Shown here one piece after another: positions 123-54,902 of a DNA stretch of 64,000 nucleotides. The position numbers and the translations under genes are program-made. Within the stretch, counting starts at the first letter, position 1. Every line of letters begins with the position of its first letter. This DNA is from an uncultured cyanobacterium (GTDB lineage Bacteria; Cyanobacteriota; Cyanobacteriia; Cyanobacteriales; CAWUOF01), in contig CAVUSO010000001.1 of assembly GCA_963744145.1 (NCBI GenBank), forward strand, positions 128,001-192,000. The letters are read 5' to 3'. Under the pieces are notes generated by a model. The model did not search any database. It was given only the letters and a program-made list of their open reading frames with translations, and was not told where the DNA came from.

Positions 123-773
123 ATGACTGATCACACAAATGCTCGAGAACTATTCCAAGCTGCTTACGAAAATCGTTACACATGGGACTCTAATTTTCCC
201 GGTTATTTAGCGGAAATTGAAGTTAAACAGGGTAAGGAAATCCATACCGGAAAGATTTGCATTCATCCGGATCTGAAGATTGAAGTCACAGAAGTCGCCA
301 ATCCAAAAGTTCAAGAAAGCATTTACAATCAATTACGGGATCTGGTTACCCATCGGAAACGGTCAACTTTTGAGCAATCTCACGGGAAAAATAACTTTAG
401 CATTGGGAAAACCGAGGAAACTGGTGCGATCGAAATTTTGGTGACAGGTGAAGCAATGGGATCTAATTATCAGATCAAAGATCAGGAAATTTGTCATGTA
501 CGCCGAGTGATGGGTAAAATGGTCTTTGTGATCGATACATATCAAAGCTTCAATACTGGTTCAGGTTATGTAGCTACTCGTTATGATGCCATTTTCCGTA
601 ATGTGGAAACTGATGAAGTGATAAAAGTGTTAAAATTTGAGGACTCCTACGAGAAAATAGGAGACTATTATGTAATGACTCAGCAGGTGATCCATGCAGA
701 TGAACCAGAACAGCAGATCACCACTGAGTTTAAACTGACTAACGTCAAACTACTCGAACCAGCAGTGGTATAG
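123..773 (+). CDS. DUF3386-family protein
   Basis: 216-aa ORF with the ARELFQAAYENRYTWD..FPGY N-terminus typical of cyanobacterial DUF3386 proteins. Confidence 0.8.
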   Translation: MTDHTNARELFQAAYENRYTWDSNFPGYLAEIEVKQGKEIHTGKICIHPDLKIEVTEVANPKVQESIYNQLRDLVTHRKRSTFEQSHGKNNFSIGKTEETGAIEILVTGEAMGSNYQIKDQEICHVRRVMGKMVFVIDTYQSFNTGSGYVATRYDAIFRNVETDEVIKVLKFEDSYEKIGDYYVMTQQVIHADEPEQQITTEFKLTNVKLLEPAVV

Positions 774-9519: not shown

Positions 9520-11052
9520 ATGTTTCAGCAAACTTTTAAAAATATTGATGATGTTCTCTGGAAAGAGGCGGGTTGTACTACAGAGTTAGATTACACGGAG
9601 CAAACCTCTTGGCTACTGTTTTTGAAGTATTTGGATGACTTAGAACAGGAGAGGGCGCAAGAAGCAGAGCTAGTCGGTAAACCATACCAATTTATTATTG
9701 ATGAGGCGCATCGTTGGTCGGTCTGGGCGGCTCCAAAAAAGGCTGATGGTACGGTAGATCATGATAATGCGCTGATTGGCGACGATTTGATTGATTATGT
9801 CAACCGTAAGCTATTTCCATATTTACAGGGGTTCAAGCAACGGGCTACTAGTCCAGACACGATCGAATATAAGATAGGCGAAATTTTTAGCGAAATTAAG
9901 AATAGGTTTCAAAGTGGCTACAGCTTGCGGGATGCACTGGAATATATTGATGAATTACGGTTTCGATCGCAACAGGAAAAACATGAGCTATCCCATCTCT
10001 ATGAAGCCAAAATCAAGAATATGGGCAATGCAGGGCGCAATGGTGGGGAATATTATACACCGCGTCCTTTGATTCGAGCGATGATTCAGGTAGTGAAACC
10101 GAAGATTGGCGATCGCATTTATGATGGAGCCTGCGGTTCAGCGGGGTTTCTTTGCGAGAGTTACGACTACTTACGTCAGGGTAATCTTACTACTAAACAA
10201 CTTGAGCAACTTCAAACCGATACTTTTACAGGTAAGGAGAAGAAAAGTCTCGCTTATGTGATTGCGATTATGAATATGATCTTGCATGGTATTGATGCAC
10301 CGAACATTATTCACACCAACACTCTGACGGAAAACCTTAGTGATATTCAGGATCAGAACCGCTTTGATGTAATCTTAGCAAATCCACCGTTTGGAGGAAA
10401 GGAACGTAAGGAAGTACAGCAGAATTTTCCGATTAAGACGGGGGAAACAGCGTTTCTGTTTTTGCAGCATTTTATTAAAATCCTGAAGCAGGGAGGTAGA
10501 GCAGCAGTGGTAATTAAAAATACCTTTTTGTCGAATTCGGATAATGCTTCGCGAGCTTTACGTCAAGAACTTTTGAGTAGTTGTAATCTGCATACAATTT
10601 TAGATTGTCCGAGTGGGACATTTATTGGAGCAGGAGTTAAAACCGTAGTGCTGTTTTTTGAGAAAGCTTCTCCCTTCGACTTCGCTCAGGGAGAGCCTTT
10701 TCAGGAAATGCCCTTATTTTCTCAAGAAAAAGCTTTAAATGAGGGGATGGCGACTCGGAAAATTTGGTATTATCAACTTGATCCAGGACGTAGTTTAGGG
10801 AAAACCAATTCTCTGAATGATGACGATCTGCGAGAGTTTGTAGAGTTACAGTCTACTTTTGCTGAAACAGAAAAATCTTGGCTGGTGGATATTGCTGATG
10901 TCGATCGGGAAACTTTTGATCTGTCGGTAAAGAATCCGAATAAGGGTGAGGAAACATCGTTAAGAGAACCACAGGAAATTTTAGATGAAATTGCGATTTT
11001 AGATGCAGAAAGTGCAGAAATTTTGGAAGCGATCGCGAGGATGTTATCATGA
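9520..11052 (+). CDS. hsdM: Type I R-M methyltransferase subunit
   Basis: GEYYTPR, DGACGSAGFL (motif I) and NPPF (motif IV). Confidence 0.93.
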   Translation: MFQQTFKNIDDVLWKEAGCTTELDYTEQTSWLLFLKYLDDLEQERAQEAELVGKPYQFIIDEAHRWSVWAAPKKADGTVDHDNALIGDDLIDYVNRKLFPYLQGFKQRATSPDTIEYKIGEIFSEIKNRFQSGYSLRDALEYIDELRFRSQQEKHELSHLYEAKIKNMGNAGRNGGEYYTPRPLIRAMIQVVKPKIGDRIYDGACGSAGFLCESYDYLRQGNLTTKQLEQLQTDTFTGKEKKSLAYVIAIMNMILHGIDAPNIIHTNTLTENLSDIQDQNRFDVILANPPFGGKERKEVQQNFPIKTGETAFLFLQHFIKILKQGGRAAVVIKNTFLSNSDNASRALRQELLSSCNLHTILDCPSGTFIGAGVKTVVLFFEKASPFDFAQGEPFQEMPLFSQEKALNEGMATRKIWYYQLDPGRSLGKTNSLNDDDLREFVELQSTFAETEKSWLVDIADVDRETFDLSVKNPNKGEETSLREPQEILDEIAILDAESAEILEAIARMLS

Positions 11053-11132
11053 GTAGTGGAGAGATGCAGCTAATAGTAACTATCAGATTTTAGCTTGATT
11101 TTGTATGTCAAATTAATTTTATTAAGGTAGTT

Positions 11133-11351
11133 ATGACAAACATCAAAATAATCATAGAAAAGCACCCCGATGGTTACGTTGCCTATCCTTTAGTGCTTCA
11201 GGGGGTTATAGTTGGTGAGGGTGACACCTATGAAGAAGCTTTAGATGATGTGCGATCGGCTATTTTGTTTCATATTGAAACTTTTGGACGGTCGGCATTA
11301 GAATCTGCATCTTCAATCCTGGAAGCTTTTGTGGTAGAGATGAACCTGTAA
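11133..11351 (+). CDS. HicB-family antitoxin, followed by a HicA-like start stub at 11351
   Basis: YVAYPL..GVIVGEGDTYEEAL motif; next ATG overlaps the stop and reads MEKFPV before degenerating. Confidence 0.8.
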   Translation: MTNIKIIIEKHPDGYVAYPLVLQGVIVGEGDTYEEALDDVRSAILFHIETFGRSALESASSILEAFVVEMNL

Positions 11352-11620
11352 TGGAAAAATTTCCTGTTATTGCCGTTGATGAGAGAGTTTAAGGATTTGA
11401 GAGGAATTAATTCTCGCACCAATTTGATACCTATGACACACTACGCGATCGCTCCTACACTTAACTGAACCCTATTAATATATAAATCTCCAATTATTGA
11501 TTGGAGAAATTCGTTAGATATTAAAGTAGCTGGTTGAGCGGAGTCGAAACCAGCAGAACAGCCTCGATTAGCAAAGCATACTCTAGCAACCAAAGATAAT
11601 CAACTAACCAAAAACGACAG

Positions 11621-11697
11621 ACTGAGGACTGAACACTGAGGACTGAACACTGAGGACTGAACACTGAGGACTGAACACTGAGGACTGAACACTGAGG
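11621..11697. repeat. 14-bp tandem repeat (ACTGAGGACTGAAC)x5.5, STRR-like heptamers
   Basis: Direct reading of the sequence. Confidence 0.9.
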
Positions 11698-12128
11698 GCT
11701 GAGCGTAGTCGAAGCCCGGTATTTGTGCAACCAATAGTTGCAGAAATCAGTTTGATCGTATAAAGAGTTGGTTTCGACTCCGCTCAACCAACTTTGTCCC
11801 ATACTCAATTGAGCCTCAACTTACCAAACCGGAGAGACTGAGGGCTGAGCGTAGTCGAAGCCCGGTATTTGTGCAACCAATAGTTGCAGAAATTAGTTTG
11901 ATCGTATAAAGAGTTGGTTTCGACTCCGCTCAACCAACTTTGTCCCATACTCAATTGAGCCTCAACTTACCAAACCGGAGAGACTGAGGGCTGAGCGTAG
12001 TCGAAGCCCGGTATTTGTGCAACCAATAGTTGCAGAAATTAGTTTGATCGTATAAAGAGTTGGTTTCGACTCCGCTCAACCAACTTTGTCCCATACTCAA
12101 TTGAGCCTCAACTTACCAAACCGGAGAG
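11691..12128. repeat. 3 x 146-bp tandem repeat, each unit with two oppositely oriented REP-like hairpins
   Basis: GAGCGTAGTCGAAG at 11701, 11847 and 11993; one substitution separates copy 1 from copies 2 and 3. Confidence 0.92.
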
Positions 12129-12286
12129 ACTGATGGCTGATGGCTGAGTTTACCCTGAGTTTACCCTGAGTGTTCCCTGAGTTTACCCTGAGTTTATCCT
12201 GAGCGCCCTTCGACTACGCTCAGGGACAAGTCGAAGGGCGTAGTCGAAGGGTAGTCGAAGCCCAGTTTTTTGCAAGGAGTGATAAA

Positions 12287-12634
12287 ATGGCCTATATTTA
12301 TATACTTGAATGTGCAGATAGTTCTTTTTACACAGGAAGTACCATCGATTTGCCTCGTCGTTTATGGGAACATGAAAATGGTTTGGGTGCAAATCATATA
12401 AAGAAGCGATTACCTGTAAAATTAGTTTATGCAGAGTATTATGAGCGTGTGACAGATGCTTTTGAGCGGGAAAAACAGGTTCAGGGTTGGAGTCGGGCTA
12501 AGAAGATTGCTTTGATGAATAGTAATTGGGATCGGCTTCATATTTTGGCAGAGTGTCGGAATTATTCTCATTATAAAAATTCTGGTTTCGACTACGCTCA
12601 ACCAACCGAAAATTGCAGTAGTAATGAAAATTAA
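12287..12634 (+). CDS. Small GIY-YIG nuclease (UPF0213/YazA-like)
   Basis: YIYILECADSSFYTGST...RRLWEH...EREKQVQGWSRAKK. Confidence 0.9.
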   Translation: MAYIYILECADSSFYTGSTIDLPRRLWEHENGLGANHIKKRLPVKLVYAEYYERVTDAFEREKQVQGWSRAKKIALMNSNWDRLHILAECRNYSHYKNSGFDYAQPTENCSSNEN

Positions 12635-12642
12635 GGAATGGT

Positions 12643-13845
12643 ATGTATTTTACAGTTGCTAATCGACAGTTACCAGTGGGATGGGAAATAAAAACACTTG
12701 GTCAGGTTATAAAGCTTGAATATGGTAAACATCTTCCTGATGAAGTTAGAGTTCAAGGAGGAAAATACCCTGTTTATGGAGCTAATGGAGTGAAGTGCTG
12801 GAGTGATAAATATTATTTTGATAGGCAAAGCATTATTGTTGGTAGAAAAGGTTCAGCCGGAGAAGTTAACATTACCGATGAAAAATTTTGGCCTCTTGAT
12901 GTTACCTACTTTGTTACTTATGATAATACACAATACGATTTAATTTTTCTTTACTATTGTTTAAAACATCTTCGTCTTGCAAAGCTAGCAAAGGGTGTAA
13001 AACCTGGTATCAATCGAAATGATGTTTATCAAATTCAATTTATATTTCCCCCACTTCCTGAACAAAAACAAATTGTAGCAATATTAGATGAGGCGTTTGA
13101 AGGGATTGATAGCGCGATCGCGATCGCCGAAAAGAACCTCGCCAACGCCCGCGAACTATTTGAAAGCTATCTAAATGTCATCTTTACTCAGAAAAACGAT
13201 TCTGGTGAGATATTTAAACTTGAAGATATATGCGATAAAACCCGAGTAATTACTTATGGTGTTATCAAGCTAGGTGAACATATTGATAATGGTGTACCAT
13301 GTTTACGGACAAGTAATGTTCGCTGGCTTGATATTGATCTCAATGGTATAAAGCGAATTTCACCTTCCTTATCGGCAGATTATAAACGAACCATTCTTAA
13401 AGGTGGAGAAGTGTTAGTTAATGTTCGAGGAACCCTTGGTGGAGTAGCAGTTACAACACCGCAGATGGCTGGTTGGAATATATCACGCGAAGTAGCCCTT
13501 GTACCTATAGATATAAAACGAGCTTATCCAACTTATTTAGCTTATTGGATTGGGGCAAAAACAAACCAACAATGGCTTAGTAGCGTTGAGAAGGGCGCTG
13601 CATACACTGGAATTAACATTGAAGACTTACGAACTCTACCAGTTGTAGTTCCCGATTTGAAAAAGCAAGAAAGACTTATTAACTCTATTAAGAAAGTTCA
13701 TTTCTTCTCCCAAAATCTTGAAAATATCTACCGCCAAAAAATCGCTACTCTCAAAGAACTCAAACAATCTATCCTCCAAAAAGCATTTACTGGCGAACTC
13801 ACCGCAGATACTGCTAAAAATGATTATAGTGCGATCGGAATTTAA
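12643..13845 (+). CDS. hsdS: Type I R-M specificity subunit (two TRDs)
   Basis: LPVGW, PPLPEQKQIVAILDEAF and LKQSILQKAFTGEL conserved regions. Confidence 0.92.
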   Translation: MYFTVANRQLPVGWEIKTLGQVIKLEYGKHLPDEVRVQGGKYPVYGANGVKCWSDKYYFDRQSIIVGRKGSAGEVNITDEKFWPLDVTYFVTYDNTQYDLIFLYYCLKHLRLAKLAKGVKPGINRNDVYQIQFIFPPLPEQKQIVAILDEAFEGIDSAIAIAEKNLANARELFESYLNVIFTQKNDSGEIFKLEDICDKTRVITYGVIKLGEHIDNGVPCLRTSNVRWLDIDLNGIKRISPSLSADYKRTILKGGEVLVNVRGTLGGVAVTTPQMAGWNISREVALVPIDIKRAYPTYLAYWIGAKTNQQWLSSVEKGAAYTGINIEDLRTLPVVVPDLKKQERLINSIKKVHFFSQNLENIYRQKIATLKELKQSILQKAFTGELTADTAKNDYSAIGI

Positions 13846-13862
13846 CAACAACATCACAATAT

Positions 13863-14307
13863 ATGAAAGCAATTGAAACCACAGGTACAATTAACAAGAG
13901 TGGACAACTCACACTTGATAAATCCTTGGAAGCGATCGAACCACAGCGTGTTCGTATTATTATTTTAATTGATGAAGATAATGAAACCGAAACTGACCCG
14001 GATGAAACACCTACAGAAGTGATTATTGAAGGTATTCGTAAAGGTTTGCGTGAAGCTTTATCCCGACAAACTATTCCCCTCTCGGAAATGTGGACGAATG
14101 CTAAGGAATTTGACGAAAAATTTGACGCAGGAGAAGATATCACTCAATTTCTTGATCTATCTAAAACCAGAACGTCCCTTATCTGATCCTAAAAAGGACT
14201 CGATTCAAGAAAGCACTGGCTCTCGTACTCCTGGATTACTAACTGGACAAATTAGCGACACATTTTTTGACCCTCTACCAGAAGAAGAACTCAATCAATG
14301 GGAATAA
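13863..14307 (+). pseudogene. Mosaic of three antitoxin-like segments
   Basis: MKAIETTGTI...QTIPLSEMW is fused to NAKEFDEKFDAGEDITQFLDLSK (BrnA/CopG-like), then RTPGLLTGQISDTFFDPLPEEEL follows in another frame. Confidence 0.6.
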
Positions 14308-14368
14308 GCTACATCTACCAACAGCGATCACATCTATGAAGTTAATATGGATAAATTAATGAAGCAGT

Positions 14369-15028
14369 ATGAGCAATGACCTGAATAACCCGAACAACCA
14401 GCTATTTTCTGAAATCTGTCAACTTATTTGTACCGCCAAGCAAAACGCTATCATGGCTATTAAAACAGAGATTAATTCTCTGCGTCCCCAAGATCAACAA
14501 TTACTACCTGATATATCTCTAAAAGACCCCTATATTTTAGATTTTTTAGGTTTGCGCGATCGCTACATAGAAAAAGACATCAAAGATGCCATCTTGCGAG
14601 AAATTGAGCAATTTTTATTAGAACTCGGTACAGGTTTTACCTTCATCGCCAGTAAAAAATGCTTACAAATCGATAACAACGATTTTTATATTGACCTACT
14701 ATTTTATAACCGTAAACTTAAACGTCTTGTGGCGATCGACCTAAAACTAGGTAACTTTGATCCAGAATATAAAAGTCAGATGGAACTTGCTCTACGCTGG
14801 TTAGTAAAATACGATAAAGAGAGTGACGAACAGCCACCTTTAGGAATCATTTTATGTGCAGGCAAAAAGCAAGAGCAGATTGAATTATTAGAACTAGACA
14901 AAAGTGGTATCCATGTAGCCGAATATCTTACAGTATTACCATCTAAAGAATTGCTAAATGCGAAACTACAAGAAGCGATCGCCACAGCCCATCGCCGACT
15001 GCCATATTCAGAAGACAAGTTACCATGA
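14369..15028 (+). CDS. YhcG/DUF1016 PD-(D/E)XK nuclease-domain protein with an N-terminal internal deletion
   Basis: LKDPYILDFLGL, FLLELGTGFTF, IDLLFY and PLGIILC motifs; N-terminal domain mostly absent. Confidence 0.8.
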   Translation: MSNDLNNPNNQLFSEICQLICTAKQNAIMAIKTEINSLRPQDQQLLPDISLKDPYILDFLGLRDRYIEKDIKDAILREIEQFLLELGTGFTFIASKKCLQIDNNDFYIDLLFYNRKLKRLVAIDLKLGNFDPEYKSQMELALRWLVKYDKESDEQPPLGIILCAGKKQEQIELLELDKSGIHVAEYLTVLPSKELLNAKLQEAIATAHRRLPYSEDKLP

Positions 15029-15139
15029 ACGAAGCCCAAACTCGCGCCAAACTGATTGATTAATCACCACATAAGCATGATAATTGAATTTATGCTGATC
15101 AAGAATTACCAGACTGCCCATTGATGAGGCGAGCGCCCC

Positions 15140-16558
15140 ATGATTACTCTTGAAACCCTTGAAAAATGGTTGCTTGTACCCACAGAAACAGAAAAGCTAG
15201 AATTTAAAGAAGCAAAACAACAGTTTGATACGACCAAACTACTGAAATATTGTGTAGCACTAGCCAACGAAGGTGGTGGTTATATTGTTTTAGGCGTTAC
15301 CGATAAGCAACCTCGCCAAGTAGTAGGTTCATTAGCTTGGTCAACAGCAGAAGAATTAAACAAGATTAAGGCATATATAGTTGAGAAACTAAGATTTCGC
15401 GTAGAAGTGACAGAATTACAGCATCCCGATGGTCGAGTGCTAGTTTTTGAAGTGCCAACCCGTCCAGTAGGACAAGCATTGACCTTTGAGGGTGCATATC
15501 TGATGCGAGCAGGCGAAGACTTGATGCCAATGACACCAGATATGCTCAAACGGATTTTTGCTGAAGATCAGCAAGATTGGTTTTCCTTACCTGCCCAATC
15601 AGATGCAAGTCCGGACGATGTGATTGCCCTCCTAGATACTCAAACCTACTTTGAACTGCTAAAAATCCCCTATCCAACCAGCCAAAACGCCGTCCTAGAA
15701 AGATTGCAGAGCCAAGATTTAATCAAACAGACAGCACAAGGTTGGATAATCACTAACCTAGCTGCAATCCTTTTAGCAAAAAAGCTGGATGCCTTTTCTG
15801 CTACATTGGCTCGCAAAGCACCCCGTGTAGTCATCTATGAAGGTATTAATAAGCTGCAAACCCGCGACGATAAAATACACAACCGAGGATATGCAATTGG
15901 CTTTAAATGGTTAGTAGATTTTGTCCATTCATCAGCACCACAAAATCGCTTTATTGAAGAAGTCATGCGCGAGGAAGTGAAGATGTTTCCAGAACAAGCA
16001 CTACGGGAACTAATTGCTAATGCCCTAGTGCATCAAGACTTTCTAGCTACGGGTGCTTCAGTAATGATTGAGATGTATAGCGATCGCATCGAGATATCTA
16101 ATCCTGGCATTCCACCCATTCAGGTCGATCGCTTCATTGACGAATATCGTTCACGTAATGAGCAACTCGCGGACATAATGCGACGTTTCGGTATTTGTGA
16201 AGAAAAAGGTAGTGGCATTGACAAAGTTGTGAGTGCCGCAGAAGTATTTCAACTACCAGCACCAGATTTTCGAGTGGGCGAGACACGCACTACAGCACTG
16301 CTATTTGCTCATCAGGATTTTGCCGACATGAGTAAAACCGATCGGATTCGAGCCTGCTATCAGCATTGTTGCCTGTTGTATGTCAGTAATCAACGAATGT
16401 CTAACCAGACCCTACGAGAGCGATTTCGTTTAAGTGAGTCAAATGCAGGAACGGCTTCCCATATTATAAAAGCTACCAAAGAAGCTGGCTTGATCCAGAC
16501 AGACGAGTCCGAATCAAACTCTACCCGCTATGCCCGCTATCTCCCTTTTTGGGCATAA
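15140..16558 (+). CDS. AlbA_2 (Schlafen-like) + HATPase_c_4 + wHTH protein
   Basis: LEFKEA, ALANEGGGYIVLGV, ALRELIANALVHQD, IEISNPG, SRN and EEKGSGI motifs. Confidence 0.85.
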   Translation: MITLETLEKWLLVPTETEKLEFKEAKQQFDTTKLLKYCVALANEGGGYIVLGVTDKQPRQVVGSLAWSTAEELNKIKAYIVEKLRFRVEVTELQHPDGRVLVFEVPTRPVGQALTFEGAYLMRAGEDLMPMTPDMLKRIFAEDQQDWFSLPAQSDASPDDVIALLDTQTYFELLKIPYPTSQNAVLERLQSQDLIKQTAQGWIITNLAAILLAKKLDAFSATLARKAPRVVIYEGINKLQTRDDKIHNRGYAIGFKWLVDFVHSSAPQNRFIEEVMREEVKMFPEQALRELIANALVHQDFLATGASVMIEMYSDRIEISNPGIPPIQVDRFIDEYRSRNEQLADIMRRFGICEEKGSGIDKVVSAAEVFQLPAPDFRVGETRTTALLFAHQDFADMSKTDRIRACYQHCCLLYVSNQRMSNQTLRERFRLSESNAGTASHIIKATKEAGLIQTDESESNSTRYARYLPFWA

Positions 16559-16780
16559 AAGTGCTTTAACGCAAACCGAGATGAGTAACTCTCATAGCCT
16601 GAAACCCTTTCAGAATCATCAAAAAAGTGCTTTAACGCAAACCGAGATGAGTAACTCTCATAGCCTGAAACCCTTTCAGAATCATCAAAAAAGTGCTTTA
16701 ACGCAAACCGAGATGAGTAACTCTCATAGCCTGAAACCCTTTCAGAATCATCAAAAAAGTGCTTTAACGCAAACCGAGAT
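16557..16780. repeat. 66-bp tandem repeat x3.4 immediately upstream of hsdR
   Basis: GTGCTTTAACGCAAACCGAGAT at 16561, 16627, 16693 and 16759. Confidence 0.92.
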
Positions 16781-16789
16781 CAGCGAAAT

Positions 16790-19138
16790 ATGAACGAAGC
16801 AGAAACCCGCGCCGAACTCATTGACCCCGCCCTAAAAGCCGCAGGTTGGGGAGTTGTCCCTAATAGTCGGATTGGTCGCGAAGTCATAGCTCCTGGTCGT
16901 TTAATCGGTGGTGGGAAACGAGCCACACAAGAGCGTGCTGATTATGTACTGGTATATCGCGGTGAAAAACTCGCTGTCATCGAAGCGAAAAAACGTGATG
17001 CACCCGATACCGAAGGTTTAGGACAAGCCAAAAAATACGCTGAAAAATTGCAAACTCGATTCGCCTACTCTACAAATGGCATTGGGATCTACCAAGTAGA
17101 TATGCACACAGGCGCAGAAGGCTACATCAACCAATATCCTACCCCCGATCAACTGTGGGAAGCTACTTTTAGCAAAACTAACTTGTGGCGCGATTCTCTT
17201 TCAGAGACACTTCGCGATCGCTTTGCCGAAGTTCCCTTTGAAGATCGAAGCGGCACTTATGAAGTCCGTTATTATCAACACAACGCGATTAAGCAAGTCC
17301 TAGAAGCAATTAGTCAAGGACGCGATCGCATATTATTAACAATGGCAACCGGAACAGGCAAAACCTTCATCGCCTTCCAAATCACCTGGAAACTATTCCA
17401 AAGCCGTTGGAACTTGAGCAGAGAACCTAACCGTCGCCCGCGAATTTTGTTTCTAGCCGATCGCAATATCTTAGCCAACCAAGCTTATAACTCTTTTTCT
17501 GCCTTCCCCGATGATGCCCTCGTCCGCATTGACCCTGAAACCATCAAAAAACGGGGTCGAGTTCCCAAAAATGGCAGTATCTTTTTTACCATTTTCCAAA
17601 CCTTTATGACCGGACGAGACGAAGCTGGCAATCCCACACCTAAATTTAGTGACTATCCCCCTGACTTTTTTGACTTCATTATCATTGATGAATGTCATAG
17701 AGGCGGAGCCAGCGACGAAAGCACCTGGCGGGGTATTTTAGAATACTTCTCCCCAGCAGTACAATTGGGACTCACCGCCACCCCCAAACGTGCCAACAAC
17801 GCTGACACCTACGCTTATTTTGGTGAGCCAGTCTATACTTACGCTCTCAAAGATGGCATCAACGACGGGTTTCTGACTCCCTTTAAAGTCAGGCAAATTA
17901 AAACTAACCTAGATGAATATATTTACAGCCCCGACGATGAAATACTCGAAGGTGTAATAGACGAAACCAAAACTTACATCGAAGCCGAATTCAACCGCAT
18001 CATTGAAATTAGCGATCGCGAACGTTACCGAGTGCAACTGTTCATGGAAGAAATTGACCAGAATCAAAAAACTCTGGTATTCTGCGCTAACCAACTCCAC
18101 GCTCTAGTTGTGCGGGATTTAATCAACCAATTGAAGATTAGCAGTAATCCTAATTACTGTGTCCGCGTTACCGCCGATGATGGAAAACTAGGTGAACAGC
18201 ACCTCAGCACCTTTCAAGACAACGAGAAAACGATTCCCACTATTCTCACCACCTCTCAAAAACTCTCTACAGGAGTTGATGCTCGCAACGTTCGCAACAT
18301 TGTCCTAATGCGCCCCATCAATTCCATGATTGAATTCAAACAGATTATTGGTAGAGGGACAAGACTATTTGACGGCAAAGATTATTTCACTATCTACGAT
18401 TTTGTTAAAGCCTACGAACACTTCAATGATCCTGAATGGGACGGTGAGCCGGCTGAACCTGTACCTGTCACATCTAATCGAACAGGTGAAGCTAAAGGTA
18501 AATATAATGTCAACCCAAATAAAGCAGAAAAATCATCAACCCAACGTCAACAAATTAAAATCAAACTCGCTGATGGTAAAGAACGCACCATCCAACACCG
18601 GATATCTACCAATTTTTGGAGTCCTGATGGTAAACCAATAACCGCCACAGAATTTGTGGAACGACTCTTTGGTGAAATTCCTGAATTATTCACAGATGAA
18701 AACGAATTAAGAGCAATCTGGAGCCGCCCTGATACCCGTAAAGCATTATTAGAAGGACTAGCAGAGAAAGGCTATGGGGAGGAACAACTCACGGAAATTA
18801 GCCGCTTGATTGATGCTGAGAAAAGCGATTTATATGATGTATTAGCTTATATCGCTTATGCCTTGCCACCCATGAGCCGCCAAGAGCGCGTCCTCGCTCA
18901 CAAGTCCTTAATCTTTTCCCGGTATATCGGCAAACAGCAAGAATTTCTCGACTTTGTACTGGAACAATACATCAAAGCAGGTGTGGGGGAACTCGATCGC
19001 ACCAAATTACCTCAACTGTTAGAGTTAAAATATCATACTATCACCGATGCTGTTGAAGAACTAGGGAGCATTGCGAATATCAGCGCAGTATTTATCGGGT
19101 TTCAGCAATATTTGTATTCACAAGACAGAGCCGCTTAA
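16790..19138 (+). CDS. hsdR: Type I restriction subunit (EcoAI/EcoEI-like)
   Basis: VIEAKK nuclease motif, MATGTGKT, DECHR, LTATP and QIIGRGTR. Confidence 0.93.
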   Translation: MNEAETRAELIDPALKAAGWGVVPNSRIGREVIAPGRLIGGGKRATQERADYVLVYRGEKLAVIEAKKRDAPDTEGLGQAKKYAEKLQTRFAYSTNGIGIYQVDMHTGAEGYINQYPTPDQLWEATFSKTNLWRDSLSETLRDRFAEVPFEDRSGTYEVRYYQHNAIKQVLEAISQGRDRILLTMATGTGKTFIAFQITWKLFQSRWNLSREPNRRPRILFLADRNILANQAYNSFSAFPDDALVRIDPETIKKRGRVPKNGSIFFTIFQTFMTGRDEAGNPTPKFSDYPPDFFDFIIIDECHRGGASDESTWRGILEYFSPAVQLGLTATPKRANNADTYAYFGEPVYTYALKDGINDGFLTPFKVRQIKTNLDEYIYSPDDEILEGVIDETKTYIEAEFNRIIEISDRERYRVQLFMEEIDQNQKTLVFCANQLHALVVRDLINQLKISSNPNYCVRVTADDGKLGEQHLSTFQDNEKTIPTILTTSQKLSTGVDARNVRNIVLMRPINSMIEFKQIIGRGTRLFDGKDYFTIYDFVKAYEHFNDPEWDGEPAEPVPVTSNRTGEAKGKYNVNPNKAEKSSTQRQQIKIKLADGKERTIQHRISTNFWSPDGKPITATEFVERLFGEIPELFTDENELRAIWSRPDTRKALLEGLAEKGYGEEQLTEISRLIDAEKSDLYDVLAYIAYALPPMSRQERVLAHKSLIFSRYIGKQQEFLDFVLEQYIKAGVGELDRTKLPQLLELKYHTITDAVEELGSIANISAVFIGFQQYLYSQDRAA

Positions 19139-29073: not shown

Positions 29074-31239
29074 TTATAATTCAGGATTTTTGATCCGCCA
29101 AACTTTAATAGTATCATCACCACCAGCACTTACTAAAATTTGTCCATCCGAACTAAAAGCTAAGGAATTAGCAGATTGAATTTCACCAGTAAAATTATTT
29201 TTTAGCTCTCCTGTTTGTAAATTCCAAAGCTTAATTGTATTATCCCCACCACTACTGATCAAACTTTTACCATCACGAGTCAGCACCAGATAATTGATAA
29301 AACTTGTATGATTTTTTAGAGTATGCAATAATTTCCTACTTTTTAAATCCCAAACTTTAATCTCACTATCAGCACTACCACTAATCAGCTTTTCTCCATC
29401 TCGACTTACTAAAACTACATTCACCGCACTTGTATGAGCATTAAATGAATCGTCTAATTTACCTGTTTTTAAATCCCAAATATAAATCATATTATCAGCA
29501 CTACCACTAACTAAAATTTGCCCATTTGGGCTAATTGCGAGACAATTGACAAAACTATTATGTCCGGAAAGAGTTCTTTTTAAAGTTCCCATTTTTAAAT
29601 CCCAAACTTTAATTTTAGTATCAGCACTTGCACTTACTAAAGTTTGTCCATCTGGACTAATTACCAGAGCATTAACGGGACTGGAATGTCCAGTGAGAGT
29701 CTTAATTTTTTCTTTCTTTTTAAGATTCCAAAGATTAATAGTATTATCAGCACTTGCACTTGCTAAAGTTTGTCCATCTGGACTAATTACCAGGTAATTG
29801 ATAAAACTCGTATGTCCAGTCAGAGTCTTGATTAATTTTCCAGTTTTTATATTCCAAAGTTTAATAGTATTATCTGCACCACCACTAACTAAAGTTTGTC
29901 CATCTGGACTAATCACTACATAGTTGACAAAGCTAGTATGTCCAGTTAGGATATGAATTAAATCCAGATTTTTGCTGGCAATGATAGCAGGAAGAGTAAC
30001 ATAGTTAAGTTTTACCAACCAACTAATTAATCCACCTAATCCGAGCAGCAGGATTAGCAGAGCTAATAAAATTTTTAACTGTTGGGTTGGTTGAATAAAA
30101 TTTAACAATTGCGATCGCCAAGTAGAGAGATGATTAATTTTACTAATCACCGATGACTGTGGTTGAGTTGATGCGGTTTCCTGAGGTGTAGTTACTGATG
30201 GTAATTTACTCAACTCAGGAGGGACAGTAGGAAGTTGACTCTCAACAGATAATCGCTGAGAATAAAGTGGTGCTGTGGTCAAATCATCAAAGTGTGATAA
30301 TGCTTGATAATTGAGGGAATTCAGCTCAATTTCCGACAAATTTGGGAATGGGGGGATGATAAAATCTGGTAAAATCTCTGCTACAGATTGATAACGCTGG
30401 GATCGATCAATTTTTAGTAACTTATCTAAAATTTTATCTAATTGCTGACTAATTGGTTGTTCTAAATAATTTCGCCATTCTTCCACCCAGCTATAGGCTT
30501 TAATTTTCCAGAGCTCGCGAGGATTCATATTAGTTAAAAGGTGAAAACAAGTAGCACCTAAACTATATAAATCGCTAGCAGGATAAGCTGCACCACTATC
30601 CATTTGCTCGATCGGCACATAGCCATAAGAGCCAATACTTGTCCCCGGTTGAGAAATGGCAGCTGCGGTGAGTTGTTTAGCGATCCCAAAATCAATTAAT
30701 ACACATTTGCCATCACTTTGTCGCCGGATGATATTTTCTGGTTTAATATCACGGTGAATCACATTATGCTCATGCACAAATCTGAGAATATCTAATAAAT
30801 CTTTTAACAATTGCCAAATTTTTGGTTCGCTAAAAGCTTGGAACTGTTTTAATTCTTTAAATAAAGTTTGTCCAGCAATATATTGTTGAATTAAATAGAG
30901 ACAATTATCTTCTTCAAAATAAGCATAAAGAGTCGGAATTTGGGGATGTTGTCCTAATTGTTGCAGTCGCATTGCTTCTTGCTCAAATAGTTGTTTGGCT
31001 TTGAGCAGATTTTTAGTTCCTTTAATTTGAGGTGCAAATTGCTTAATTACACAGATTTCATTCAGCTTGTCTACATCTTCAGCTAGGTAAGTTTTACCAA
31101 ATCCACCACTACTAAGAGGTTCAATCGTCCGATAACGATTTCTGAGCAGTGGTATCAGTTTTGCCCCGCAATGTTGGCAAAAATTCGTGTTTTTCGGATT
31201 TAAGGGTTCCTGACAATCGGGATTAAGACAGCAGAGCAT
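29074..31239 (-). CDS. Ser/Thr kinase with 4-Cys prefix, TM helix and WD40 repeats
   Basis: CLNPDC/CQHCG, GGFGKT, HRDIKPEN, DFG; about seven GH..WD repeats. Confidence 0.93.
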   Translation of the reverse strand: MLCCLNPDCQEPLNPKNTNFCQHCGAKLIPLLRNRYRTIEPLSSGGFGKTYLAEDVDKLNEICVIKQFAPQIKGTKNLLKAKQLFEQEAMRLQQLGQHPQIPTLYAYFEEDNCLYLIQQYIAGQTLFKELKQFQAFSEPKIWQLLKDLLDILRFVHEHNVIHRDIKPENIIRRQSDGKCVLIDFGIAKQLTAAAISQPGTSIGSYGYVPIEQMDSGAAYPASDLYSLGATCFHLLTNMNPRELWKIKAYSWVEEWRNYLEQPISQQLDKILDKLLKIDRSQRYQSVAEILPDFIIPPFPNLSEIELNSLNYQALSHFDDLTTAPLYSQRLSVESQLPTVPPELSKLPSVTTPQETASTQPQSSVISKINHLSTWRSQLLNFIQPTQQLKILLALLILLLGLGGLISWLVKLNYVTLPAIIASKNLDLIHILTGHTSFVNYVVISPDGQTLVSGGADNTIKLWNIKTGKLIKTLTGHTSFINYLVISPDGQTLASASADNTINLWNLKKKEKIKTLTGHSSPVNALVISPDGQTLVSASADTKIKVWDLKMGTLKRTLSGHNSFVNCLAISPNGQILVSGSADNMIYIWDLKTGKLDDSFNAHTSAVNVVLVSRDGEKLISGSADSEIKVWDLKSRKLLHTLKNHTSFINYLVLTRDGKSLISSGGDNTIKLWNLQTGELKNNFTGEIQSANSLAFSSDGQILVSAGGDDTIKVWRIKNPEL

Positions 31240-33849: not shown

Positions 33850-34625
33850 CCGAGATATCCCAAAAAATCCTGAACTGAATGGATTTTAAGCTCTAGTTGA
33901 TCTGTTGGTTGCATAGATTGAGGGCAAAGCATTTCGGTCATATTATTCTGAGTTTCAGCTATCATTTATGCGCCGAAATGCTTTGCCCCTACAAGTAACT
34001 AAACTGGATTGGTATTTAATCAGCGATCGCTTGCCGATCAATGGGGTGTAGGGGCGAAGCATTCGGGCGATAATTTACCGATTAAACCAGCAATATTCGA
34101 TCCGAATGCTTCGCCCTTCTTCTTCTGCGCCGAGCTCCCCAAAAAATCCTGAACTGAATGTTATTTTAATATATAGTTGATCTGTTGGTTGCATAGATTG
34201 AGGGCAAAGCATTTCGGTCATATTATTCTTCCCTTCGACTCCGCCCCCTTCGACTACGCTCAGGGCAAGCTTCGACTACGCTCAGGGAACACTCAGGGTA
34301 AACGTTTCAGCAATCATTTATGCGCCGAAATGCTTTGCCCCTACAAGGAACTGAACTGGATTGGTATTTAATCAGCGATCGCTTGCCGATCAATGGGGTG
34401 TAGGGGCGAAGCATTCGGGCGATAATTTACCGATTAAACCAGCAATATTCGATCCGAATGCTTCGCCCTTCTTCTGCTGCGCCGAGTTCCCCAAAAAATC
34501 CTGAACTGAATGTTATTTTAATATATAGTTGATCTGTTGGTTGCATAGATTGAGGGCAAAGCATTTCGGTCATATTATTCTTCGTTTCAGCAATCATTTA
34601 TGCGCCGAAATGCTTTGCCCCTACA
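33850..34625. repeat. ~280-bp tandem units (x2.5) of REP-doublet hairpins; unit 2 carries a ~72-bp insertion
   Basis: AGGGCAAAGCATTTCGG...CCGAAATGCTTTGCCC and GTAGGGGCGAAGCATTCGG...CCGAATGCTTCGCCC repeated. Confidence 0.88.
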
Positions 34626-49245: not shown

Positions 49246-49529
49246 CTAATTCTCCTAAGATCCACCGCTACTTTGTTTTGGATGAACAACTGTCGGGTAT
49301 TTCGCTGTACGGGCGTATTGCAATACGCCCCTTCGTTGTTACTCCTATTCTCACACAACTATTTCGATAATTAAGGTAATTATCGAAATCATCAGAAAAT
49401 ATTTTCAGGTGGTTAAAACCACTTGGGTCGTTTCCCTCTCAGGTTCTAAGTGAGCGTAGTCGAACGGTCTAAAGAACCCTAGCTTCGACTTACTAGGTTT
49501 TTTTATGATTATTGATCGATTGACTGAGA

Positions 49530-51768: not shown

Positions 51769-52252
51769 ATATATTCCATCAGTACGAATTTTAAAGATAA
51801 ATTGTTGCGCTCGAAAATCTAGGATTGATGAGCGGGCGATCGCTGGGGATAAATCCAATATTCCTGTTATGGTTAATCTGTTTGATTCATAATTGACTGA
51901 GGGCAAAGCATTCCGGTCATAGTTTTCTCGATTTATACCATGACTGATCTGCCGGAATGCTTTGCCCCTACAAATCCGGACAAAACTTGCCCTGAGCTTG
52001 TCGAAGGGTTCTGTTCACGTTTCCTTTAGATTCGCTATAGATAAATTATCATCCAATCCGGTTCGATTAATCGTAGGGGCGAAGCATTCGGGCGATCATT
52101 TATCACTTACAGCCGATAATATTATATCCGAATGCTTCGCCCTTCTTCGCCGAGATCTCCCAAAACAATCTTAACTGAACCCTATTGAGCTATCCTGTAC
52201 TGATGAATTAGCGATCGCGATTTCATCTCTTTTGTTAATCAGATTGCGATCG

Positions 52253-53776: not shown

Positions 53777-53807
53777 AATGCCGGGATGATTGAATTTATA
53801 ACAATTT

Positions 53808-54785
53808 GCGATCGCCTATTGATCACAATCATGCTAAGATTTCTGTGTGATATATTCCATAGCGTGCGAATTTTAAAGATAACTTGTCGCGATCGAAAAT
53901 CTAGAATTGATGAGCGGGCGATCGTTTGGGATAAATCCAATATTCCTGTTATGGTTAATCTGTTTGATTCATAATTGGCCGAGGGCAAAGCATTCCGGTC
54001 ATAGTTTTCTGGAGTTATCCCATCACTGATCTGCCGGAATGCTTTGCCCCTACGAATCCGGACAAAACTTGCCCTGAGCCTGTCGAAGGGTTCTGTTCAC
54101 GTTTCATTTAGGTTCGCTATAAATAGATTATAGTTCAATCCGGTTCAATTCCCTGTAGGGGCGAAGCATTCGGGCGATCATTTATCACTTACAACCGATA
54201 ATATTATATCCGAATGCTTCGCCCTTCTTCGCCGAGATCTCCCAAAACAATCTTAACTGAACCCGATTGAGCTATCTTGTACTGATGAATTAGCGATCGC
54301 CTATTGATCACAATCATGCTAAGATTTCTGTGTGATATATTCCATAGCGTGCGAGTTTTAAAGATAAATTGTCGCGATCGAAAATCTAGAATTGATGAGC
54401 GGGCGATCGTTTGGGATAAATCCAATATTCCTGTTATGGTTAATCTGTTTGATTCATAATTGGCCGAGGGCAAAGCATTCCGGTCATAGTTTTCTGGAGT
54501 TATCCCATCACTGATCTGCCGGAATGCTTTGCCCCTACGAATCCGGACAAAACTTGCCCTGAGCCTGTCGAAGGGTTCTGTTCACGTTTCATTTAGGTTC
54601 GCTATAAATAGATTATAGTTCAATCCGGTTCAATTCCCTGTAGGGGCGAAGCATTCGGGCGATCATTTATCACTTACAACCGATAATATTATATCCGAAT
54701 GCTTCGCCCTTCTTCGCCGAGATCTCCCAAAACAATCTTAACTGAACCCGATTGAGCTATCTTGTACTGATGAATTAGCGATCGC
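53808..54785. repeat. 485-bp tandem duplication delimited by HIP1 sites; diverged third copy at about 51768-52218
   Basis: GCGATCGC at 53808, 54293 and 54778 with near-identical intervening sequence. Confidence 0.9.
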
Positions 54786-54902
54786 TATTTTTTCTGTTAA
54801 TCAGATTGCGATCGCGACGTACCTCGTGATGACTTCAACCCAATTTTGAACGACTCTACTATAATACATGACTGAGGTTTAGGGGCCGATTGCAATAGGT
54901 TA

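Follow-up and report, generated by a model that had tools for sequence, protein, structure and literature searches.

Ssn nucleases are single-domain GIY-YIG proteins (CDD cd10448) that cut only single-stranded DNA (ssDNA) beside a cognate hairpin repeat, termed NTS in Neisseria and SRM in general and present in hundreds of copies (Chenal et al., Nat Commun 2025, PMC11893778). In the available text of that paper the ssnA gene of Neisseria meningitidis is flanked by repeats in the order NTS-ssnA-NTS, ssDNA-specific cutting beside the cognate hairpin is demonstrated for four Ssn homologues, SsnA is inactive on RNA, the SsnA/NTS pair modulates transformation in Neisseria, and the analogy with IS200/IS605 elements and with the REP-associated tyrosine transposases (RAYTs) and their repetitive extragenic palindromic (REP) sequences is drawn by the authors themselves (PMC11893778). 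The locus described here lies in a 64,000-nucleotide stretch of DNA, termed the window, from an uncultured cyanobacterium (GenBank assembly GCA_963744145.1, contig CAVUSO010000001.1, positions 128,001 to 192,000), in which a 115-aa GIY-YIG nuclease gene sits between two oppositely oriented copies of a hairpin with a fixed 12-nt loop, GAGCGNAGTCGA, and a free stem. An earlier note on this DNA had drawn attention to the pairing of nuclease and repeat and to its likeness to RAYT/REP systems, neither of which is new, both having been published in 2025 for the Ssn family (PMC11893778); the nuclease-plus-hairpin kind is known since then, and the window holds a variant with a different motif. The reading preferred here, at a probability of roughly 0.55, is that the window encodes an Ssn-type nuclease with a cognate fixed-loop hairpin, whose cuts let hairpin mini-elements and the gene-bearing cassette be copied.

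The window locus shares with the Ssn systems a single-domain GIY-YIG protein of about 90-115 aa, a gene placed between inverted hairpin repeats at nearly the same distances, and a repeat in tens to hundreds of copies that are depleted in coding DNA. At locus L109, for example, the upstream NTS ends 27 nt before the open reading frame (ORF), and 34 nt lie between the aligned end and the start of the following NTS. The repeats themselves differ, the loop being constant and the stem variable here, whereas NTS has a conserved stem and a conserved 5' flank. Three NTS-adjacent GIY-YIG ORFs, found among 80 metagenome loci retrieved with the NTS pattern and used for the comparison in place of meningococcal SsnA itself, show 35-37% identity with E values of 5e-12, 3e-11 and 4e-10 that refer to a small database, and structures of the UPF0213 family match the window protein about as well as these ORFs do. 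The criterion of homology used in the Ssn paper is a tblastn match at E<1e-10 or a match to cd10448, and among genomes holding close relatives of the window gene its Supplementary Data 4, as available, scores 9/9 as cd10448-positive and 7/9 as tblastn-positive with the responsible gene unspecified, lists four other Planktothrix and four Microcystis species without a cd10448 homologue, and gives an SRM enrichment of 0-1.7 fold, that is, no enrichment, for the nine (PMC11893778). One of the nine is Planktothrix paucivesiculata PCC 9631, where the gene is 76% identical and also stands before hsdS. By architecture and moderate homology the window protein is best described as Ssn-type rather than as a proven cd10448 member.

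Cyanobacteria, Bacteroidota and restriction-modification (R-M) operons do not appear in the available main text of the Ssn paper, and four features reported below, namely the class of motif, its range of phyla, the 24-nt mini-element with its quantised insertion and the placement between hsdM and hsdS, were not found in that text (PMC11893778) or in the literature searches. Searches linking GIY-YIG with REP, with REP doublets forming hairpins (REPINs), with MITEs (miniature inverted-repeat transposable elements) or with cyanobacterial repeats gave nothing relevant among the matches listed, and those on the motif and on the peptide strings it encodes gave only unrelated matches. A search on the Ssn family yielded the 2025 paper alone.

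A conserved pair of nuclease gene and fixed-loop hairpin

The 12-nt loop occurs in 303 exact copies in the genome (137 forward, 166 reverse), and the bases on either side of it pair, with four or more pairs in 256 of the 303 copies, into stems that differ in sequence (CCCT/AGGG, GGCT/AGCC, GGTT/AACC, TGTT/AACA, CCGT/ACGG). That a constant core with a covarying stem reflects selection on a hairpin had been suggested earlier, and the suggestion is borne out by 140 distinct gene-flanking hairpins from 94 homologue loci, aligned over seven stem pairs. All seven pairs vary on both sides, with 242 double-change cells compared with 86.6 +/- 8.3 after shuffling (0/500 as high) and 61-88 in a control with partners slid by 1-3 columns. 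The hairpin is under structural selection and its loop is invariant. Copies are depleted in coding DNA, since long open frames make up 74% of the chromosome and contain 39 of 301 cores. Structural selection of this kind might act on RNA, the hairpins being terminators or mRNA stabilisers with a regulatory link to the gene. Hairpins do bracket the transcript, and REP elements can stabilise mRNAs. The flanking copies are inverted, however, which would give the mRNA two loops that differ, the loop is kept as DNA in both orientations genome-wide in the proportions given above, the hairpins correspond to no Rfam family and SsnA is inactive on RNA (PMC11893778, available text), and an RNA-level role is considered very improbable.

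The association of the hairpin with the gene extends well beyond cyanobacteria. A scan of one genome per species gave 589 relatives, the best 80 of which, taken for a phylum survey, come from Cyanobacteriota, Bacteroidota, Pseudomonadota, Gemmatimonadota, Acidobacteriota, Chloroflexota, Ignavibacteriota, Cloacimonadota, Thermodesulfobacteriota, Fibrobacterota and others. The motif is present in 86 of 94 distinct homologue loci from about ten phyla. A (+) copy lies at most 150 nt upstream of the gene in 57 of the 94, mostly at -36 to -57, a (-) copy lies at +280..480 in 61, of which 31 begin at +292..+301, and both are found in 44. Close homologues have copies within 150 nt of the gene in 16/16 loci from 14 cyanobacterial genomes, six loci with distant GIY-YIG genes (36-42% identity) have no motif, and none of the five other GIY-YIG-domain genes of the host genome, UvrC included, is flanked, the nearest copy being about 1.2 kb off. 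Hairpin(+), gene and hairpin(-) are therefore treated as one unit, and nuclease and hairpin family are a conserved pair. A quick tree was drawn after removal of L005, L099, L106 and L126, whose translated stretch contains a stop, of L012 and L016, which are truncated or broken, and of L032, L034 and L039, which are duplicates. The branch that sets off the NTS-linked proteins has a support of 100 SH-aLRT; 89 proteins stand on the other side of it, 79 of them with the 12-nt-loop motif, and three Chloroflexota proteins with a related 11-nt loop, GAGCNNGTCGA, form a clade of their own.

Within the window the 23-bp inverted repeats earlier placed around the gene, the right copy inside the 3' end of the ORF, lie as described. 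The left arm and the reverse complement of the right agree in 22 of 23 bases, the mismatch being G/T in mid-core, and since each arm is itself a hairpin (CTGGTT-core-AACCAG) the "inverted repeat" amounts to two oppositely oriented motif copies. The core, GAGCGKAGTCGA, occurs 16 times in the window with at most one mismatch compared with 0.08 expected, a count reached in 0/100 shuffles that rules out a chance inverted repeat. Eleven of the 16 cores lie within 11536-12599 and the dispersed ones at 10676, at 34235/34250/34272 and at 49452, so of the dispersed sites listed by the earlier note those near 10672, 34231 and 49451 hold the motif; those near 51990, 54072 and 54557 hold instead a hairpin with a different 11-nt loop, GAGCYTGTCGA, and a CCCT/AGGG stem.

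This second hairpin class, CTTGCCCT-GAGCYTGTCGA-AGGG, was seen at 51975-52010, 54057-54092 and 54542-54577 of the window, and its 11-nt loop, GAGC(CT/TT)GTCGA, has 13 copies in the genome. The 11-nt loop type flanks the separate GIY-YIG subclade in three Chloroflexota loci (L049, L062 and L084), which suggests one motif class per nuclease clade.

The abundance of the motif was compared with the presence of the gene in 301 genomes of the cyanobacterial class, 21 of which have a gene match at E<=1e-10 and 14 at E<1e-30. All 14 of the latter hold 33-585 copies (303, 61, 353, 111, 46, 65, 88, 33, 82, 443, 585, 35, 94 and 420), and a reversed-pattern control gave 0-19 in any genome of the sample. 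At least 20 copies are present in 14/14 gene-bearing genomes compared with 26/280 without a match (Fisher p 7.7e-14; kin are not independent, though the 14 genomes fall in 9 families), and the expected link between genome-wide counts and gene presence holds. One genus with 20 genomes has four gene-bearing members with 65, 443, 585 and 420 copies and sixteen others with 0-101. Eighty-one Flavobacteriaceae genomes agree more weakly, with a median of 9.5 copies in 36 gene-bearing and 1 in 45 other genomes (Mann-Whitney p 1.3e-4) and at least 10 copies in 18/36 compared with 8/45 (Fisher p 0.0036), and 5/5 gene-bearing non-cyanobacterial genomes hold 16-62 copies compared with 0-1 for the reversed pattern. 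Motif abundance follows the gene.

RAYT/REP-REPIN systems likewise have a single-copy gene that stands between hairpin repeats of its own. There too the repeats have multiplied throughout the genome, form inverted hairpin doublets and persist in genomes without the gene; the difference is the enzyme, here a GIY-YIG hydrolase and not an HUH tyrosine transposase. A RAYT-driven REP family was considered and rejected, the host genome having 17 Y1_Tnp (PF01797) matches at 14 places, 12 of which have no copy within 1.5 kb and the remaining two 2 and 1 copies. The nuclease locus is the densest of 2545 3-kb genome bins, with 10 copies, and the independence from RAYTs proposed earlier is upheld.

Insertion of a 24-nt element and of the gene cassette

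The dispersed repeat is a 24-nt element composed of a YTTR prefix, a 4-bp stem strand, the loop and the second stem strand. The commonest 24-mers are TTTACCCT-core-AGGG, with 75, 24 and 8 copies of the T, G and A core variants, and CTTGCCCT-core-AGGG with 31. Two palindromic MITE families, A with ends AAGCATTTCGG/CCGAAATGCTT (147 copies) and B with ends GAAGCATTCGG/CCGAATGCTTC (227 copies), are its main landing pads. Of the family A copies, 111 have an inner length of 33-36 nt and contain no core, 17 measure 59 nt and contain exactly one core each, and still greater lengths occur at 82-83 nt (9 copies), 107 nt (5) and 131 nt (1). Family B behaves in the same way, with 186 copies of 34-37 nt that contain no core, 22 of 59-61 nt with one core each, and longer ones of 83-84 nt (4) and 107-109 nt (3). 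What has been inserted is precisely the 24-nt element, with a junction ambiguity of 1 nt (G) and no longer target duplication, and it is placed in constant orientation relative to the MITE near the apex of its palindrome. Longer forms are nests, in which the loop of one element holds a second one, placed either after GAG and before CG or directly behind GAGCG, and nesting yields, for example, runs of the form (TTTACCCTGAG)n - core - (CGTAGTCGAAGGG)n. A nest of this type, within a GGCT/AGCC hairpin, makes up the compound hairpin at 12142-12263. Since 24 is a multiple of three the element can also sit in frame within genes. A Calothrix hsdM orthologue (86% identical) shares the copy of the window hsdM, at the corresponding position, and has two extra 8-codon inserts of the motif besides, of which one is a clean TTTA-CACT-core-AGTG element. 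In all, the 24-nt hairpin unit was inserted on many occasions, about 300.

Small dispersed repeats (SDRs), which Elhai et al. reportedly described in 2008 (Genome Res) from Nostoc and other cyanobacteria, are said to be 21-27 nt long, hairpin-forming and mobile, and to lie within MITEs and tandem short repeats. We know of no enzyme for SDRs and of no nuclease gene linked to them. The window element resembles them in behaviour, namely in its 24-nt size, its hairpin and its insertion into MITEs.

The cassette itself is an insertion. Eleven Flavobacteriaceae loci have the nuclease gene directly after the gene for 3-hydroxy-3-methylglutaryl-coenzyme A (HMG-CoA) reductase in a mevalonate-pathway operon. 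Five gene-less Flavobacteriaceae were compared. In three of these the reductase gene and the gene that follows it, a GHMP-kinase-like ORF from reading its sequence, overlap by 4-20 nt, the other two having a different downstream gene; in five gene-bearing Flavobacteriaceae a cassette of about 400 bp (hairpin, ORF, hairpin) stands exactly between those two genes. A second recurrent site is the type I R-M operon. In 22 of 97 loci the gene closest to that of the nuclease belongs to a type I R-M system; the 97 include three duplicates, none among the 22. Ten of the 22, from Cyanobacteriota, Bacteroidota, Gemmatimonadota, Pseudomonadota and Chloroflexota, have hsdM upstream and hsdS downstream. Because these ten loci from five phyla share it, the hsdM-hsdS placement in the window is one case of a recurrent position, which suggests a preferred landing site or a functional tie between restriction of double-stranded DNA (dsDNA) and of ssDNA. 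The gene is patchily distributed, being found in 21/301 genomes and 16/144 genera.

These observations also bear on the idea of a selfish cassette that homes into, or hitch-hikes on, repeats already present, the hairpins then being its landing site and not its product. Its clean insertion between overlapping genes would be expected of such a cassette, as would its patchy distribution, the mixing of cyanobacterial orders on short branches of the quick protein tree and the existence of motif-rich genomes without the gene. The gene has nevertheless stayed single-copy where some 300 sites would be open to it, the flanking hairpins are constant across phyla in their distance and orientation to the ORF, as in one unit, and the 115-aa one-domain protein has no DNA-binding domain of the homing type, and the idea is judged unlikely.

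The nuclease and its operon in the window

The host genome (7.7 Mb, 39% G+C, HIP1-rich, 4 contigs) has cyanobacteria as its closest relatives in genome searches, and the features of the nuclease locus are collected in Table 1.

Table 1. Positions of the nuclease gene, its hairpins and repeats, and adjacent genes in the window
Feature	Position	Strand	Remarks
hsdM, type I R-M methylase	9520..11052	+	Pfam N6_Mtase E 3.5e-58, HsdM_N
24-nt hairpin element in frame within hsdM	10672..10695	-	Core 10676-10687; encodes PFDFAQGE
HicB-like small ORF	11133-11351		By-eye reading; sole Pfam match DUF5678, below cut-off
Outer left hairpin, CTGGTT-GAGCGGAGTCGA-AACCAG	11531..11553	+	Inverted 23-nt partner of 12582-12604
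14-nt tandem repeat ACTGAGGACTGAAC x5.9	11621..11702	.	Tandem Repeats Finder; runs into the array
3.1 x 146-bp array	11691..12140	.	Tandem Repeats Finder, 99% matches
Compound upstream hairpin, outer GGCT...AGCC stem	12142..12263	+	Loop holds nested partial and whole CCCT-type elements
Single-domain GIY-YIG nuclease gene, Ssn-type, 115 aa	12287..12634	+	Pfam PF01541
Downstream hairpin, core 12588-12599	12582..12604	-	Inside ORF 3' end, +301 from start codon
hsdS	12643..13845	+	Pfam Methylase_S E 4.2e-28
Three-element nested/tandem cluster at family A MITE apex	34231..34295	-	

The nuclease matches PF01541 (E 2.7e-16, aa 1-73) and no second Pfam domain, its catalytic domain being assigned to aa 1-95 and the tail, aa 95-115, being the downstream hairpin read through, which encodes ..GFDYAQP... 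The AlphaFold2 model has a mean predicted local distance difference test (pLDDT) score of 81.7, with residues 1-94 confident and 95-115 below 50, and the predicted disorder of the tail would fit a hairpin that is merely read through. Columns invariant in 28 homologues include Y5, Y15, G17, R25, H29, E62 and N92, which presumably take the GIY, YIG, Arg, Glu and Asn roles known from I-TevI and UvrC. A large protein collection holds 3036 relatives at E<=0.001, and many of the best 120 of these have a tail GFD[SYF]AQP directly after the catalytic domain and, further along, RSLSGVEG or AERSRSP, which are translations of the motif, from one orientation and from two frames of the opposite one.

The nuclease ORF of Winogradskyella/Bizionia loci L046, L066 and L071 (~2001-2420) continues in frame through the downstream hairpin into the next, GHMP-kinase-like gene, the open frame being 433-448 aa with no stop seen, which implies a fusion protein or an internal restart.

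The nearest solved structures by sequence are PDB 1zg2 (E 3.5e-12) and 1ywl (E 3.6e-10), matched over aa 3-78, which belong to the UPF0213 family (BH0048, EF2693). The window protein has the same small GIY-YIG fold and differs in an extra conserved C-terminal block, ..LAEC.N.SH... To our knowledge no repeat association is known for UPF0213 proteins, and the UPF0213/YhbQ/COG2827 literature searched contains none on repeats by title or abstract. GIY-YIG homing endonucleases such as I-TevI and the Seg proteins also have this catalytic domain and a gene inserted between host genes. Free-standing members carry a separate DNA-binding domain and cut dsDNA. A classical homing endonuclease was rejected for the window protein, which consists of one domain and a disordered tail and whose only NCBIfam match is a sub-threshold one to the group I intron endonuclease model TIGR01453 (16.1 bits compared with a cut-off of 56).

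Upstream of the gene, about 900 bp of repeats separate it from the HicB-like ORF. The 146-bp array that had been noticed there stands at 3.1 copies, and each unit has one (+) hairpin with a GGGCT/AGCCC stem, a 51-nt spacer and one (-) hairpin with a GGTT/AACC stem; the ends of the spacer resemble the gene leader and 3' end (a short similarity, judged by eye), and the units may be gene-less copies of the cassette. The compound hairpin that follows includes an 11-nt x5.5 array at 12144-12203 (Tandem Repeats Finder), a (-) core at 12210-12221 and a degenerate (+) core at 12236-12247. Rfam gave no family at E<=1 over 11000-13000 except two chance-level matches, and one tRNA and nothing else over the whole window at gathering score.

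The core at window 49400-49500 lies within an element of about 100 nt with three genome copies (G000 C1:177452, 3321186 and 3370483), which is not a simple hairpin, ends in a T run and has no Rfam match; it may represent a gene for a small RNA or a further repeat. Also seen were a tandem duplication of 485 bp (99% identical) at 53803-54789 and, at 29455-29946, a 126-bp x 3.9 repeat (76%).

The type I R-M operon, 9520-19138, is broken by five small genes, the nuclease included. The order after hsdS is a RelN/BrnA-like antitoxin gene (NF050107, E 2.9e-31), a YhcG PDDEXK gene whose product matches the PADLOC candidate-defence model PDC-S02 (E 8e-66), a Schlafen gene (AlbA_2/HATPase_c_4) and then hsdR at 16790-19138, with a perfect 66-bp x 3.4 tandem repeat at 16557-16780 directly 5' of the hsdR start. 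A further locus, L012 (G034:C384), has a truncated nuclease gene followed by a gene that by eye encodes a four-helix-bundle ("23S rRNA intervening sequence") protein and then hsdS, and the four-helix-bundle gene is another small gene of the type gathering in R-M operons.

This context invites the explanation that the nuclease serves in ssDNA restriction or control of DNA uptake, the hairpins being only recognition sites and the repeats having spread otherwise or by recombination. The company of R-M genes described above, with a type I R-M gene nearest in 22/97 loci and hsdM and hsdS bracketing the gene in ten of them from five phyla, points in this direction, as do the four other small genes inserted in the window operon, one with a candidate-defence match, and the action of SsnA on NTS-bearing transforming DNA in Neisseria (PMC11893778, available text). 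No PADLOC model matches the nuclease, however, the 11 Flavobacteriaceae loci lie in a mevalonate-pathway operon with no defence context, and neither the 24-nt quantised insertions nor the place of the gene between two copies is explained. A restriction role is compatible with copying by the nuclease, and as the whole explanation it has a minority but real share of our belief.

A possible mechanism and its meaning

Copying initiated by an Ssn-type nuclease would take the following form. The cognate DNA element would be the hairpin, with a free stem of 4-7 bp and the 12-nt loop fixed. By analogy with those SsnA enzymes that have been characterised, the protein most likely binds the folded hairpin on ssDNA and makes its cut close by in that strand. 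Its cuts may then start the copying of mini-element and cassette to new sites, a step with less support than the preceding ones, and host ligation or repair synthesis would complete it, the mini-elements being non-autonomous derivatives of the nuclease as REPINs are for RAYTs. Cleavage of ssDNA by this protein is thus proposed by analogy, and any part of the nuclease in the 24-nt insertions, and mobilisation by it, would follow only if these later steps hold.

Several observations weigh against this scheme. A hydrolytic GIY-YIG nuclease forms no covalent DNA intermediate, and pasting would for this reason need host ligation or repair synthesis. We know of no such pasting pathway. The nuclease gene is single-copy in the host genome while the hairpin has about 300 copies, and the stems next to the gene are GGCT and GGTT, whereas 75 + 31 + 24 dispersed copies are of the CCCT type. 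The published SRM pattern, HGTCWYN(0-2)YYVSBRHN(0-5)WNVSBRGN(0-2)RNCYNB (PMC11893778, available text), has 7 matches in the 7.6-Mb chromosome (contig C1), 0 on the 301 cores and 0 in window 11000-13000, and the NTS-linked proteins stand on a long separate branch of the quick tree. The motif is also abundant in places where the gene is absent. Among the cyanobacterial genomes, 280 lack a match at E 1e-10, and of these 254 have fewer than 20 copies and 26 have 20-289; 8 of the 45 Flavobacteriaceae without a gene match hold 10-55. The five richest gene-less cyanobacteria (289, 150, 128, 123 and 118 copies) remain without a close homologue when the threshold is relaxed to E 0.01; these five are fragmented assemblies of 350-510 contigs, in which a unique gene should assemble regardless. 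Because such motif-rich genomes lack a close homologue, the repeats persist or spread without the gene. Single hairpins fold weakly as DNA, at -2.2 to -6.3 kcal/mol with z -1.1 to -2.7 (-6.3 kcal/mol and z -2.7 for that at 11531-11553), and it is therefore the covariation and not the energy that carries the case for the hairpin. G-T and A-C mismatches in the flanking hairpins number 32 and 21 and single out no strand, and copy orientation shows no bias between the two chromosome arcs (Fisher p 0.35), a comparison made uninformative by a cumulative GC skew without clear origin or terminus.

A bolder form of the preferred reading, offered tentatively and held to be possible rather than probable, makes the nuclease a trans-acting mover of the 24-nt hairpin mini-elements that cuts ssDNA at loops or apexes and is shared by at least ten phyla. 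If true, this would be a transposition-like pathway built from a hydrolytic nuclease and host repair, the mini-elements, at 24 nt, would be the smallest non-autonomous elements known, with a length divisible by three and so tolerated in frame, and the "very small mobile repeats" of cyanobacteria would have a mover, none having been known for them since 2008.

The Ssn paper, in its available text and data, did not define cognate repeats for large parts of the family, its search pattern showing no enrichment in the genomes of cyanobacterial and flavobacterial members (PMC11893778). The window locus supplies the missing motif for a clade of about ten phyla. The logic of this motif is a different one, the loop being fixed and the stem free, and is relevant to DNA recognition by so small a protein and to the use of such enzymes as ssDNA tools of new specificity. 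The 24-nt insertion steps are direct evidence of the mobility of the hairpin unit, and the spread of very small repeats in cyanobacteria becomes testable with one named candidate enzyme.

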